The notes under the pieces are model-generated. The model searched no databases and was not told where the DNA came from. It saw only the letters and a program-made list of their open reading frames with translations. A stretch of 64,000 bases of DNA from an uncultured SAR86 cluster bacterium (GTDB lineage: Bacteria; Pseudomonadota; Gammaproteobacteria; Magnimaribacterales; D2472). Positions 5,209-49,452 of the stretch are shown here, one piece after another; the stretch's first letter is position 1, and the number at the start of each line of letters is the position of its first letter. The stretch lies in NCBI GenBank assembly GCA_902531245.1, contig CACADH010000003.1, forward strand, positions 15,394 through 79,393, given 5' to 3'. A program made the position numbers and the translations under genes.

Positions 5209-5225
5209 AAAACTTTACTAAATTA

Positions 5226-5951
5226 TTAATCTTTTTCCCAATCAAATTTAGGCAATTCTTTAAAAAGATTTCTTAGCCCTTCAGACCACTTGCTAGATAA
5301 ATCTGAAAAAAATGGTGTTTTGAATTGAAGATGTTCTTCAAGAGAAATCTGGATAGAATCTTTTTTATAGACTATTAAATCTATTGGAGGACCAACAGTG
5401 AGATCACTCTTCATAGTTGAATCAAATGACACTAAAGCACATCGGGCTGCATCACCTAGAGAAGTTTCTTTTCTTATAAGTCTATCAAGAATTGGTTTTC
5501 CGTACTTAGTCTCACCAAGTTGGAAAAAGGGTTTTATCTCAGAGGCATGTATATAATTACCAACAGGATAAACCATCAATAGAGCAGGTTCTTGTCCACT
5601 AATTTGACCACCAATAAGAAAATTTGATCCAAGATGAGTATTAATTGAAATCCCATCTGTTTTTGAGTGATTTAATGAAATTTGTCCTACATACTCTGCA
5701 ATTTCATCAAAATTTTTGCATAAATTTAAGCTAGTTAAAGGATTAGATGAATCAATATCACTTTCTAAGGTCTTAAAAACATGTTGTGATGTTGATAGGT
5801 TTCCTGAAGTAACAATAATTATTGATCTATCCCCAACTGAATAAGTAAACATCTTTTTGTATGTGGAAACATTATCCAATCCAGCATTTGTTCTTGAATC
5901 AGACACCATAACAATGCCATCATTCATTTTCATTCCTACGCAGTAAGTCAT
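5226..5951 (-). CDS. Anbu proteasome-type (Ntn) protease
   Basis: MTYCVG with N-terminal catalytic Thr, SDSRTNAG.D, SGNLSTSQ, QLGETKYGKPILDR, STMKSDLTVGPP. Confidence 0.92.
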   Translation of the reverse strand: MTYCVGMKMNDGIVMVSDSRTNAGLDNVSTYKKMFTYSVGDRSIIIVTSGNLSTSQHVFKTLESDIDSSNPLTSLNLCKNFDEIAEYVGQISLNHSKTDGISINTHLGSNFLIGGQISGQEPALLMVYPVGNYIHASEIKPFFQLGETKYGKPILDRLIRKETSLGDAARCALVSFDSTMKSDLTVGPPIDLIVYKKDSIQISLEEHLQFKTPFFSDLSSKWSEGLRNLFKELPKFDWEKD

Positions 5952-6055
5952 ATTTAAATTTAATTTTTATGAATGCCTTATTCTATATTTATATAATAAA
6001 AAAAGACATAAAATCAATTATCTTTCTTGCTTCGATTTGCTAAAGTGAATTTAAA

Positions 6056-6104
6056 CGTTCATCTTTTGATAAAAGACGGAAGTAGGTGAGAACCGAAGGA
6101 ACGC
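6056..6104 (+). ncRNA. glutamine riboswitch (glnA RNA motif) aptamer
   Basis: CGTTC-A-TCTTTT(GAT)AAAAGA-CGGAAGTA-GGT(GAGA)ACC-GAAG-GAACG-C. P1, P2, the CGGAAGUA junction/E-loop and P3 match the glnA motif, with a compensatory P1 change (CGUUC/GAACG instead of CGUUG/CAACG). Confidence 0.85.
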
Positions 6105-6152
6105 ATTTCTTTATCTCATCTGTTTTTTATTAATTGATTATTACTAGCAATT

Positions 6153-7586
6153 ATGAAGACAAATAAATATAAGATAAATAATTTTTACGATGAATATCTA
6201 AATAATAAAAATAATCCCCGTAAGAGTTTTGAAGCCTCATTTAACTTTTTTGATCTTTTAAGTGCAAAAAAAAAGAAACTATTGTCAAAAGTTCGTGATT
6301 CAATAATACGTTCTATGGGAATTACATTTCGTGTTTATAACAATAATGAATTAATTGATAGAGAATGGCCACTAGATTTAATTCCAAGAATAATTAAAGA
6401 AAAAGAATGGAATAATGTTAAAGACGGATTAGTTCAAAGAATTAAGGCAATAAATTTATTTATACATGACGTATACCATAAACAAGAATTTTTAAATGAA
6501 AACCCAATTTTAAAATCATTAATTTTAGATTCCCCAAATTTCTTAGAAGAATGTAAAGGAATCACCCCTAAAAATAAGATATGGGCAAACATATCAGGCA
6601 CAGACCTAATTAAAGACCATCTTGGTAAGTTTTATGTTTTAGAAGATAATCTTAGAGTTCCTTCAGGTGTTGCATACATGCTTGAAAATAGGAATGTTAT
6701 GAAAAAAGTCGTAACGGATCTTTTTAGCAAATATCAAGTATCACCGATTGATGATTATACATTCCAATTATACAAATGCTTATCTAATGCTAGTTACTCA
6801 AAAGATAAGAAAAAAACAATTGTTATTCTAAGTCCAGGCGTATTTAATTCTGCATATTTTGAGCATGCATATCTGGCGCAACAAATGGGAATCGATCTTG
6901 TTGAATCATCAGATTTAATTTTGTCTAAAGATAATTATGTTTATATAAAAACAATATCAGGACGAAAAAAAGTTGATGTTATTTACAGAAGGGTAAATGA
7001 TGATTATCTTGATCCAACATTATGGATCAAAGACTCTTCATTAGGATTAGCAGGAGTCATAAACTCCTGGAAAGAAAAAAAAGTTGCTATTGTAAATGCT
7101 CCTGGATCAGGCGTTGCTGATGATAAAGCAGTGTATGCATTTGTTCCCAAGATGATAGAGTTCTTTTTAAATGAAAAACCAAAACTCAATCAAGTAAAAA
7201 CCTATTTATGCGCATTTGAAAAGGATAGGAAATTTGTTTTAGATAATATTAATAAGCTTGTTCTTAAGCCTGTAAATGAATCTGGAGGTTATGGAATTCT
7301 AATAGGACCAAATGCTACAAAAAAAGAATTAAATGATTACAAATTAAAAATTATCTCAAATCCAAGAAATTTTGTGGCACAGCCACTTATTAAGCTTTCT
7401 ACAAGTCCAACTCTAATTAAAACAAGCATACAGCCAAGACATATTGATTTAAGACCATTCATATTGTCTGGAAATGGTACTTTTGTAACGAATGGTGGAT
7501 TAACCAGAGTTGCACTTGAAAAAGGCTCTACTATTGTTAATTCCTCTCAAGGCGGCGGCAGTAAAGATACTTGGGTTGTTAACTAA
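6153..7586 (+). CDS. circularly permuted type 2 ATP-grasp protein
   Basis: GITF, WPLDLIPRII, VLEDNLRVPSGVAYMLENR, NSAYFEHAYLA, VDVIYRR, GGLTRVAL, VNSSQGGGSKDTWV. Confidence 0.93.
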   Translation: MKTNKYKINNFYDEYLNNKNNPRKSFEASFNFFDLLSAKKKKLLSKVRDSIIRSMGITFRVYNNNELIDREWPLDLIPRIIKEKEWNNVKDGLVQRIKAINLFIHDVYHKQEFLNENPILKSLILDSPNFLEECKGITPKNKIWANISGTDLIKDHLGKFYVLEDNLRVPSGVAYMLENRNVMKKVVTDLFSKYQVSPIDDYTFQLYKCLSNASYSKDKKKTIVILSPGVFNSAYFEHAYLAQQMGIDLVESSDLILSKDNYVYIKTISGRKKVDVIYRRVNDDYLDPTLWIKDSSLGLAGVINSWKEKKVAIVNAPGSGVADDKAVYAFVPKMIEFFLNEKPKLNQVKTYLCAFEKDRKFVLDNINKLVLKPVNESGGYGILIGPNATKKELNDYKLKIISNPRNFVAQPLIKLSTSPTLIKTSIQPRHIDLRPFILSGNGTFVTNGGLTRVALEKGSTIVNSSQGGGSKDTWVVN

Positions 7587-8471
7587 ATGCTTTCAAGTAC
7601 TGCTGAAAAAACTTATTGGCTTTCAAGATATATTGAGAGAATTGAAAATACATCAAGACTAATAATTGTTAATTCAGATTTGTTATTAGATATTCCTCAT
7701 GATGAATCAGATGACCTGAAACATTTAATTCAGATAACAGGACATCTAAGTGATTTTAAGAAAAAAAATACAAAAGAAAATGTTTTTTACTTTTTAATTC
7801 AAGATAAAAAAAATCCGTCTTCAATTAAATTTTCAATTGAAATGGCAAAAATGAATTCAAGATATCTTTTAACAATGTTGCCGAAATCTGCTTGGGAGCA
7901 ATTTAATAATCTTTATCTTGATTTTAATAGTAAAAATAAACCTTATAGCGAAGATCTTTATCAAATAATTAGAAATTCTCAAAGATTTTTTGCAATTATT
8001 TCTGATGGAATGCAAAGAAATGATGTATTTAATTTTATTAAGCTCGGTAGATTTATTGAAAGAGCTGATATGTTATCAAGAATAATTGAAGACCAGATTT
8101 TAAGAAAAGAGAACCATGTAAATAAATACTATCAAAACTTACAATGGAGTAGTGTTTTAAGATCTGTAAATGGATTCGAATCTTTCAAAACAATCAATAA
8201 AGATAATTTAAGTCAAGAAATTGTTCTTAAATTTTTGATTATGGAAAAATTATTTCCGAGATCTTTAAAATATTGTGTTGAAAAGCTATTAGAGGTGCAA
8301 AAATATTTACCAAAATCTTCGTTAGTAAAAAAAGATATTAGTATACTTTTAGATGGCTTTTCTAATGATGAATTATTTCGAAATGATAAAAAAATGTTAA
8401 AGCTGCTGGATAATTTTCAATTAGGTCTTATTAATGTGGATAAAGCAATAAATGATAGATTTTTTAATTAA
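7587..8471 (+). CDS. alpha-E domain protein
   Basis: MLSSTAEKTYWLSRYIERIENTSR, a second ER motif (LGRFIERAD) and FPRSL; starts immediately after the ATP-grasp stop. Confidence 0.9.
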   Translation: MLSSTAEKTYWLSRYIERIENTSRLIIVNSDLLLDIPHDESDDLKHLIQITGHLSDFKKKNTKENVFYFLIQDKKNPSSIKFSIEMAKMNSRYLLTMLPKSAWEQFNNLYLDFNSKNKPYSEDLYQIIRNSQRFFAIISDGMQRNDVFNFIKLGRFIERADMLSRIIEDQILRKENHVNKYYQNLQWSSVLRSVNGFESFKTINKDNLSQEIVLKFLIMEKLFPRSLKYCVEKLLEVQKYLPKSSLVKKDISILLDGFSNDELFRNDKKMLKLLDNFQLGLINVDKAINDRFFN

Positions 8472-17562: not shown

Positions 17563-17638
17563 GGGTCGCTAGCTCAGCTGGTAGAGCAGTTGGCTTTTAA
17601 CCAATTGGTCACAGGTTCGAATCCTGTGCGACCCACCA
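17563..17638 (+). tRNA. tRNA-Lys(UUU)
   Basis: 76 nt: GGGTCGC acceptor stem, D arm AGCTCAGCTGGTAGAGC, anticodon arm GTTGG-CTTTTAA-CCAAT, T arm GGTTCGAATCC, encoded CCA. Confidence 0.98.
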
Positions 17639-48556: not shown

Positions 48557-48572
48557 TGGCACACAGATTGCA
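48557..48572 (+). promoter_or_regulatory. sigma54-type -24/-12 promoter
   Basis: TGGCAC-ACAGA-TTGCA, an exact TGGCAC-N5-TTGC match 39 bp upstream of the TTG at 48612. Confidence 0.7.
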
Positions 48573-48611: not shown

Positions 48612-49004
48612 TTGAGTACTACTGAAATACAATCAATATCTAATGCTAGAAGCGTTATACAGACTATTTTGAAACAAACATTAGATAACCCAAACAATCC
48701 AGAGTCATTAAACTTCTTTCAGGCAGACACCTATAGATTTTATTTTTTAATGAGTTTTATGTGGGAGCATTTAGAAGAAAATGAAATGTCGCAAGAATAT
48801 GCCATCTCGCTTGTTCCAAAAAAGTATGCATCTAGAATCAAGCGTTTGCAAATATTAAAACAGGCTGTTGCTCTTGGATATATTGACGAAAAAGCATCCT
48901 CTACTGATAAAAGAAGAAGAATTTATAAACCTACTGAAAGGCTTATCCAAGATTTTTTAAAATATACCAATTCTTTATATAATCAAAATATATCTTCTGC
49001 TTAA
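48612..49004 (+). CDS. hypothetical winged-helix (MarR-like) DNA-binding protein
   Basis: GAGGA RBS; helix SRIKRLQILKQAVALGYI followed by wing S.TDKRRRIY.PT. Confidence 0.6.
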   Translation: MSTTEIQSISNARSVIQTILKQTLDNPNNPESLNFFQADTYRFYFLMSFMWEHLEENEMSQEYAISLVPKKYASRIKRLQILKQAVALGYIDEKASSTDKRRRIYKPTERLIQDFLKYTNSLYNQNISSA

Positions 49005-49059: not shown

Positions 49060-49452
49060 ATGTCAGATCATATTAAAAGTGATAAAGAATGGAAAAAGCT
49101 CTTAGATCATGAAAGTTATAGAGTTACTAGACAATCAGGAACTGAGAGACCATTTAGTGGTAAATATTGGAATTTCAATAAAGATGGGATTTATAAATGT
49201 GTTTGCTGTGGTCAAACTCTTTTTGAATCTGATACTAAATTCGACGCTGGTTGTGGCTGGCCTAGTTTCTTCGTGCCTTTTAATTCTAATTCTATAAATG
49301 AACTTGAAGATAAATCATTTGGGATGAATAGAACCGAGGTTAAATGCTCAAACTGTGATGCACACCTCGGACACGTTTTTAATGATGGGCCTCAACCAAC
49401 TGGTTTAAGATATTGTATTAATTCTGTTTCCTTAGATTTTGAACAAAAATAA
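49060..49452 (+). CDS. msrB: methionine-R-sulfoxide reductase MsrB
   Basis: GTERPF, GCGWPSF, RTEV.C..C.AHLGHVF.DGP, RYCINS. Confidence 0.97.

Follow-up and report, generated by a model that had tools for sequence, protein, structure and literature searches.

Here, we describe a glutamine riboswitch aptamer (glnA RNA motif, type 1) that fronts an ATP-grasp/alpha-E ligase operon in a 64,000-nucleotide (nt) stretch of DNA from an uncultured SAR86 cluster bacterium (contig CACADH010000003.1, positions 15,394 to 79,393 of the forward strand; hereafter the window, with coordinates counted from its first letter). The riboswitch class is known; its ATP-grasp/alpha-E target is new in print, recurrent and informative. 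The explanation that best accounts for the whole of the evidence, to which we assign a probability of roughly 0.5, is that a working type-1 riboswitch at the 5' end of the ligase mRNA controls translation from a start site lacking a Shine-Dalgarno (SD) sequence, and that the ligase is made when glutamine is low. The module formed by the Anbu, ATP-grasp and alpha-E proteins is widespread and Anbu has been studied structurally; we know of no substrate or product for this module, and to our knowledge the sole physiological clue in print is induction when Pseudomonas is starved of nitrogen. With a metabolite-sensing RNA ahead of the ligase genes, the signal is named directly, as glutamine, and this in two unrelated and very abundant marine groups.

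The aptamer (6054-6107, + strand) was found by running cmscan on the whole window against Rfam, where it scores 65.2 bits on RF01739 (E 3.4e-12; gathering score 35) and spans all 53 positions of the model. All helices and all conserved core positions of the model are intact, the core including the CGGAAGUA segment, and the helices fall at 6056-6060/6099-6103 (P1), 6062-6066/6072-6076 (P1a) and 6085-6087/6092-6094 (P2). The element lies on the sense strand in the 5' leader, ends 45 nt ahead of the ATG at 6153 and is the single RF01739 copy that the assembly (1.11 Mb, 75% complete) yielded when searched in full. The original prediction, made from the sequence of the window, had placed a glnA aptamer at 6056-6104 facing the ATP-grasp gene, and the Rfam boundaries differ from it by at most three bases. 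Across 16 distinct orthologous leaders, coming from three genera and from metagenomes, the aptamer helices are 99.5% paired, with no double changes within the clade. Mean column identity in the alignment of these leaders is 78%, and 47 of its 51 invariant columns fall in the aptamer or in a downstream U tract, while the flanks vary. Judged by the RF01739 model, the window element is a genuine type-1 glutamine riboswitch, glutamine binding being taken from the class.

The riboswitch faces a circularly permuted ATP-grasp amidoligase (CP-ATP-grasp; 6153-7586, +) of 477 amino acids (aa), which matches PF14403 with 485.6 bits over the full length of the profile (positions 1-374 of 374), PF04174 with 408.5 bits and the PDB entry 3n6x at E 9.7e-140. 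It is followed by an alpha-E protein (7587-8471, +; 294 aa; PF04168, 216.7 bits, profile positions 1-294 of 294), for which a sequence search for solved relatives gave none. Because the alpha-E start codon at 7587 directly abuts the ATP-grasp stop, which ends at 7586, the two genes are likely co-translated. Divergent from this pair lies Anbu (5226-5951, -), a proteasome-family N-terminal nucleophile (Ntn) hydrolase of 241 aa with the N-terminus MTYC. Its length of about 240 aa, the Thr directly after the initiator Met and the solved Anbu proteins as its nearest relatives all place it in the Anbu class: the matches to the solved Anbu chains 5loy, 5lox, 5nyj, 5nyf and 5nyw have E 6.6e-69 to 6.2e-53, far stronger than those to archaeal beta subunits (E 3e-5), and the PF00227 score is 40.6 bits. 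The starts of Anbu (5951, -) and ATP-grasp (6153, +) leave a gap of 201 nt (5952-6152), so that the layout and the gene identities given in the original prediction hold. The transglutaminase that it had counted among the module members is absent here; proS comes after alpha-E, and PF01841 was not found in any of the five genomes of the order that were searched, four of them 93-95% complete.

Text searches that combined the riboswitch with ATP-grasp, transglutaminase, Anbu or alpha-E, or that used RF01739 by itself, gave no such pairing in the titles, abstracts and term counts of the papers listed, in agreement with the earlier statement that none was known upstream of this module; the supplementary gene tables of Weinberg 2010, Klahn 2018 and PMC12379486 were outside the scope of these searches. 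In the available text of the last of these, published in 2025, RF01739 is named as lying within deletions of SAR86 genomes (PMC12379486).

The arrangement is conserved in the window's genus (g1, 41 genomes), which we compared within a set of 266 genomes of the order, with 61 relatives in the draw used for the riboswitch search; RF01739 exceeded the cut-off in 22 of the 61. The ATP-grasp gene is present in 13 of the 41 congeneric genomes, and in all 13 loci Anbu and ATP-grasp are divergent, with 193-205 nt between them in which the aptamer, or what remains of it, is located. The aptamer is intact in nine of the 13 (eight at 62.6-66.6 bits and G062 at 66.0 bits) and decayed in four (G010 at 37.3 bits, G011 and G006 at 26.4 bits, and G061 with no match at E <=1). 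Nine metagenome loci carry it at 52-69 bits, and it has decayed in three more (L168, L170, L171). The 25 congeners in the draw that lack the ATP-grasp gene have no RF01739 match over the cut-off, one of them having a 32-bit match elsewhere. The whole accessory cassette of Anbu, riboswitch, ATP-grasp and alpha-E (5209-8467) comprises 3.26 kb flanked by a thiolase gene and proS, and it is a clean presence/absence difference, since these two neighbours adjoin in five of five congeners without the module. The same thiolase/proS site holds the cassette in genera g17 and g18 and in the metagenome locus L174.

Such gains and losses would suit an aptamer that is an evolutionary leftover and regulates nothing here, promoters alone setting expression: the cassette as a whole can be dispensed with, being missing from 28 of 41 congeners, and decay of the aptamer has reached four of 13 congeners and the three metagenome loci just named. 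We consider this very improbable, given that the window copy keeps its score together with every helix and conserved core position, that the aptamer columns are near-invariant across three genera while the flanks vary, and that the partner strand in the leader co-varies with the aptamer.

Beyond the genus, PF14403 occurs in 66 of the 266 genomes of the order, and 20 of the 53 ATP-grasp genomes outside g1 were taken for comparison (all six from other genera of the family, eight of 34 from family f3 and six of 13 from family f2). The trio of divergent Anbu and ATP-grasp/alpha-E is found in all 20 of these loci, and RF01739 in only two, those of g17 and g18. Elsewhere in the order, the riboswitch precedes glnA (with tandem aptamers), a 326-aa gene resembling glutamine synthetase (GS-like), a Gcw_chp gene and gltB. 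The 326-aa protein, which has partial GS domains (PF03951 and part of PF00120), is encoded directly behind the riboswitch in L003, L006, L007 and L012 of family f4, and in the window's own genome a 323-aa GlnII-like gene (L221:1023-1994) stands ahead of ntrB-ntrC. In the same family f4, glutamine riboswitches lie ahead of genes for Gcw_chp proteins (PF09694) of about 200 aa (L002, L010, L029). A Porticoccaceae bacterium (G385) has both a glutamine riboswitch (L138) and a CP-ATP-grasp gene (G385:C18:4418-5548); the 8-kb stretch with the riboswitch did not yield the latter.

In some lineages without the riboswitch, the same intergenic position carries a putative protein-dependent device. The sequence TGGC-N7-TTGCW represents the consensus and spacing of sigma-54 promoters, and a search for it on both strands of the 20 loci (102,608 nt) gave 13 matches, all 13 within the Anbu/ATP-grasp gap. 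The pattern lies 37-48 nt before the aligned ATP-grasp start in three of three g14 loci (L033-L035) and six of six f2 loci (L047-L052). In four of the six f2 loci an opposite-strand copy faces Anbu, and in all six a GCAC-N7-GTGC palindrome stands between the f2 sigma-54 patterns; the window gap carries neither the sigma-54 pattern nor the palindrome. In L174, with Anbu 88% and ATP-grasp 85% identical, no riboswitch was detected by Rfam search, and a sigma-54 promoter, TGGCATAGTAATTGCA (L174:918-933), lies just ahead of the start codon as the sole match in 33 loci (108,096 nt).

The machinery needed to read such promoters is present in the genus as well. Genome G000 has one strong sigma-54 activator, NtrC (NCBIfam, 629.7 bits against a cut-off of 558.6), adjoining NtrB, and it also has PII; rpoN is carried by G000 and by 38 of 40 congeners. 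A scenario in which the riboswitch took over because the genus had lost NtrC and sigma-54 is ruled out by the presence of rpoN, NtrC, NtrB and PII. NtrBC senses glutamine via PII, and promoters driven by NtrC are induced at low glutamine. Because a sigma-54 promoter replaces the riboswitch and NtrC is the sole strong sigma-54 activator, the module appears to be under nitrogen control, and the same operon is, as read from these upstream regions, driven by either NtrC/sigma-54 or a glutamine riboswitch as interchangeable nitrogen-control devices. The f2 loci, with putative sigma-54 promoters on both divergent genes around one NtrC-like site, point to co-regulation of Anbu and the ligase. This speaks against the storage and remobilisation cycle of the original prediction, in which the protease would be regulated separately from the ligase and, as we read it, in the opposite sense.

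The association also occurs far outside the order. A pattern scan for the aptamer core, using one genome per species, gave at least 113 stretches, and among the 113 matches listed six have ATP-grasp and alpha-E genes downstream, all of them in alphaproteobacterial single-cell genomes. These loci have tandem aptamers and the operon order ATP-grasp, alpha-E, transglutaminase, with no Anbu; in five such genomes the sole proteasome-family gene is of HslV size, 182-190 aa (one being a 64-aa fragment). In the Pelagibacteraceae-like family to which this led, RF01739 is found in 113 of 116 genomes and PF14403 in 58, and at least 49 of these 58 have the riboswitch on the contig and strand of the domain match, 300-520 nt ahead of it (48 among the matches listed and one from L106, with three more at contig ends and six unjudged). 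In five genomes of the family every aptamer is part of a tandem pair, the remaining pairs lying ahead of glnA and of two amt genes. The association of riboswitch and ATP-grasp in this family is independent of that in the window's order, and the recurrence upstream of orthologues on which the original prediction depended is thus seen both in three genera of the order and in this separate family.

In the same family, the amt leaders (L205, L212) and ATP-grasp leaders (L193, L194, L192) have about 35 nt in common after the second aptamer (GGAUCUUAUUAUU.AAUUUCCAUAGCUA.GCAUGAA), with a related CAUAACUAGAGCAUGA in the glnA leader, and an AUG inside this stretch opens a tiny reading frame. The stretch may serve these leaders as a shared expression platform, or it may be another conserved RNA element.

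How the window riboswitch could act is suggested by the architecture of its leader. The best-conserved piece outside the aptamer is a U-rich tract, UUUUUUAUUAA (6123-6133, +), in which seven positions of UU.UAUUA are invariant in the 16-leader alignment. In the minimum-free-energy fold it forms the 3' strand of a switch helix whose 5' strand, UUGAUAAAAGA (6066-6076, +), is composed of the P1a loop and the P1a 3' strand and can pair with 6123-6133 in place of P1a, so that the switch helix and the aptamer are mutually exclusive. In the 16 leaders, 92.0% of the cells of helix 6066-6076/6123-6133 are paired, compared with 44-74% when the partners are slid, and one of its pairs has changed from A-U to G-C in three related sequences. 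A further stretch, UUUCUUU (6108-6114, +), is predicted to pair in the unliganded fold with GAAGGAA on the 3' side of the aptamer (6096-6102). The translation initiation region of ATP-grasp (6139-6166, +), with its AUG at 6153, has no SD sequence, as is usual here, a weak SD-like motif at best being present in 16 of 53 open reading frames (ORFs) of the window. With the aptamer forced to fold, the best predicted fold of each of the 16 leaders joins the U tract to the sequence around the AUG, and the mean unpaired probability of the start region (-14 to +5) falls in all 16, many of the drops being small; in the window it goes from 0.65 in the free fold to 0.34 with the aptamer forced.

Taken together, these elements would constitute a glutamine-OFF design of three strands, in which the U tract is the sequestor, the start region its target and part of the aptamer an anti-sequestor. 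When glutamine is scarce, the aptamer would be unlocked and the A-rich P1a strand would pair with the U tract, leaving the start-codon region open. When glutamine is bound, P1a would be held in the aptamer and the freed U tract would pair with the A-rich start region, upon which translation of ATP-grasp would fall, and that of alpha-E would fall too through coupling. The riboswitch would in this way do the same job as the NtrC/sigma-54 promoter of the sister lineages, the ligase pair being made when nitrogen, read as glutamine, is low.

That glutamine turns the ligase genes off is, in our judgement, slightly better than an even bet, based on folding predictions and an evolutionary argument. 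The OFF direction is favoured because the sigma-54/NtrC variants of the same operon imply expression at low glutamine, and because the lineages with decayed aptamers keep intact genes under purifying selection, which suggests that an unfolded aptamer is permissive. In these lineages the ATP-grasp and alpha-E ORFs are intact, with a ratio of nonsynonymous to synonymous divergence (dN/dS) of 0.08 at dS 0.057, and the L022, L170 and L171 leaders retain the switch helix, with a start region predicted to be open (0.60-0.63 unpaired).

Several points weigh against glutamine-OFF control by this leader. Its direction is drawn from predicted folds and evolutionary reasoning, and the sole glutamine riboswitch tested in vivo, that of gifB, is according to the available text of PMC6212724 an ON switch. 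Decay of the aptamer in four of 13 congeners implies that the control is dispensable. In the window lineage the U tract pairs with its own start no better than with control starts, 27 of 53 controls being equal, and the same holds for L018, L011, L032, L166, L167 and L172; the own start is the better partner in only four of about eight lineage groups (2-8 of 53 controls as good). Sequestration of the start region is therefore not statistically distinct in the window lineage. With energies of -3.8 to -10.9 kcal/mol, the hairpins are unremarkable for this AT-rich genome, and the compensatory change from A-U to G-C represents a single event in evolution. By the nearest-neighbour model the unliganded fold is the more stable one, by 2.4-10.7 kcal/mol, and control by the ligand would therefore have to be kinetic or to act via tertiary contacts. 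The RNA-library contigs considered below show neither the start nor the level of the transcript and could include DNA carry-over.

The opposite direction is a distinctly less probable but still serious alternative. Under glutamine-ON control, the unliganded hairpin would lock up the U tract, which would otherwise be a landing site for the ribosome (through protein S1), or would form a weak terminator; glutamine would free the tract, and the ligase would be made in nitrogen-replete cells, for example for a nitrogen-rich peptide or tag. This design needs the same conserved switch helix, it fits the U-rich sequence that comes after the unliganded hairpin in the window, and it gains from the lack of statistical support for start-region sequestration in the window lineage. 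It has precedents in gifB of Synechocystis, whose riboswitch, as described in the available text of PMC6212724, activates translation with increasing glutamine, setting free a sequence otherwise paired with part of the aptamer, and in a nitrogen-limitation study of Pelagibacter, where one Amt protein was detected only under replete conditions with its mRNA unchanged and glutamine-activated translation was proposed (PMC3870248, available text). Set against these are the sigma-54 promoters of the sister lineages and the close relative, which with NtrC as sole strong activator indicate induction at low glutamine, and the induction of Anbu by nitrogen limitation in P. putida, as given in the available text of PMC5666114 and PMC6376114, citing Hervas 2008. 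Under ON control, moreover, the genes would be silenced wherever the aptamer is dead and the sequestering helix is kept, yet the ORFs of such lineages are intact and under purifying selection. As to the terminator variant, a scan found no terminator-like site in the leader, and the U run lies inside the helix and is broken by a compensating C in L017-type leaders. Folds of the glnA, GS-like, Gcw_chp and gltB leaders in relatives revealed no clear usual switch direction. The proposal that the ligase is made in nitrogen-replete cells, as the original prediction had it, fares poorly in view of the sigma-54 variants, NtrC, the induction of Anbu in P. putida and a leader that fits OFF at least as well as ON.

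The position of the aptamer in the transcript was approached through public RNA libraries, which were used as contigs and so give no start sites or levels, and in which uncovered parts are uninformative. Contigs from two studies span from the interior of the aptamer into the ATP-grasp ORF (6081-6236 and 6078-6360), and one RNA contig of a relative starts 7 nt before position 6056. These contigs lend weak support to the aptamer being part of the ATP-grasp mRNA and disfavour a start downstream of 6107. Reading of the upstream DNA gives an inferred sigma-70 promoter at 6018-6046 (+), consisting of a -35 element TTATCT (6018-6023), a 17-nt spacer closed by TG (6038-6039) and a -10 element TAAAGT (6041-6046), which would put the RNA start close to 6052-6055, on the 5' border of the aptamer. 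The TG of this extended -10 is kept in 13 intergenic regions, the next adjoining base being variable, and a sigma-70 consensus scan called no + strand promoter in the Anbu/ATP-grasp gap.

In libraries X1 and X2, the summed contig depth over 5992-6115 reaches 215 and 501, compared with 0-75 elsewhere. Because the loose contig ends in this interval bear other aptamer sequences, we read the spike as highly expressed riboswitch leaders of other organisms.

A further proposal, which we regard as improbable, is that the riboswitch acts, in either direction, mainly on transcription or on mRNA stability in a Rho- or RNase-dependent manner. The leader is only about 45 nt long, the mRNA could be shielded or laid bare by the alternative hairpin at its 5' end, and even where the aptamer has decayed a long 5' hairpin persists, mended by new compensating pairs (L031 fold), all of which would agree with such an action; the leader scan returned nothing terminator-like, and RNA contigs cannot show RNA ends. 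Translational control through the SD-less start site remains the preferred mechanism.

The hairpin itself deserves separate description. In the decayed lineage of L024, L026, L031 and L168 the aptamer core is mutated and the U tract is lost, and the 5' half still pairs with the leader via new complementary changes (AAGACAGAAG/CUUUGUCUU and UUGAUA/UAUCAA). The long 5' hairpin of this lineage seems to be kept for its own sake.

Among the other features of the intergenic region, an AT-rich block (ATTCTATATTTATATAA..AAAAAAA.ACATAA; 5980-6011) stands out in the alignment of congeners, being near-invariant in 13 of 13 intergenic regions and kept also in L174, the variant with the sigma-54 promoter. 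The block probably belongs to a promoter of Anbu, of the ligase operon or of both. As a repeated regulator site the block received no support, with 21 near-matches in the genome against 36 for a reversed control. Elsewhere in the window, the sole other Rfam match over threshold is a tRNA gene at 17563-17635 (+; 74.2 bits). A near-consensus sigma-54-type promoter, TGGCACACAGATTGCA, occupies an intergenic position at 48557-48572 (+), 40 nt ahead of a 130-aa ORF without a Pfam match (48612-49004), which is followed by msrB (49060-49452).

Based on these results, the ATP-grasp/alpha-E ligase of the Anbu module can be counted, in two abundant marine lineages, among the members of the glutamine-reported nitrogen regulon. 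In the Pelagibacteraceae-like family the riboswitch controls little beyond glutamine synthetase, ammonium transporters and the ligase operon. The exchange of riboswitch and sigma-54 promoter within one chromosomal site offers a clean case of RNA and protein regulators standing in for one another, and it predicts the direction of the switch. For the riboswitch field, the window adds a new member to the regulon and an expression platform for mRNAs without an SD sequence. More tentatively, and with rather less than even confidence, we suggest that the ligase pair is a core part of the glutamine-reported response to nitrogen starvation in the ocean's most abundant streamlined heterotrophs, with a tiny regulon (glnA, amt and the operon in the Pelagibacteraceae-like family, the operon alone in g1) and with RNA and NtrC sensors swapped freely. 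If this is so, the product of the ligase would be made at low glutamine, as a peptide or protein tag that acts with Anbu or with a transglutaminase in remobilising protein nitrogen, and the leader would be a first candidate for a natural glutamine-OFF platform, one that masks an SD-less start site.

Four known systems offer themselves for comparison. The gifB riboswitch of Synechocystis and other cyanobacteria (PMC6212724, available text) belongs to the same aptamer family and likewise sits in a sense-strand 5' leader, with control that is probably translational and a leader sequence that pairs with part of the unliganded aptamer. It differs in its gene, a DUF4278 glutamine-synthetase inactivating factor rather than ATP-grasp/alpha-E, in its cyanobacterial host, compared with the small AT-rich heterotroph of the window, where there is no SD sequence to mask, and in its direction, gifB being ON and the window leader leaning OFF by prediction. 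Klahn et al. 2018, as far as the available text goes, tie the motif to DUF4278/gifB and state the direction of control upstream of marine glnA to be unknown (PMC6212724).

The marine glnA-motif RNAs have the same motif and the same marine setting as the window element (PMC2864571). The genes named for them in the available text of Weinberg 2010 are those for PII, glutamine synthetase, glutamate synthase, ammonium transporters and PMT1479, some with tandem motifs, and ATP-grasp/alpha-E are not among the genes named in that text (PMC2864571). In the window genome, by contrast, the motif fronts the ATP-grasp/alpha-E operon alone and no assimilation gene.

The canonical Anbu operon of Pseudomonas, Yersinia and others consists of co-directional ATP-grasp, alpha-E, transglutaminase and Anbu genes (PMC5666114, PMC6376114, available text). 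The window resembles it in having the ATP-grasp, alpha-E and Anbu families side by side and in the link to nitrogen status; it differs in lacking the transglutaminase, in an Anbu gene that is divergent instead of last in the operon (in 20 of 20 non-g1 loci and 13 of 13 g1 loci), and in control by an RNA sensor and not by a protein regulator.

The enterobacterial nitrogen-regulation (Ntr) regulon, finally, is resembled most by the sister lineages, with their TGGC-N7-TTGCA patterns and the f2 palindrome, whose spacing looks like that of NtrC sites. The window gap differs from this regulon in having neither motif, a cis-acting RNA standing there instead, and the likeness lies in what is sensed, as both devices ultimately report glutamine.

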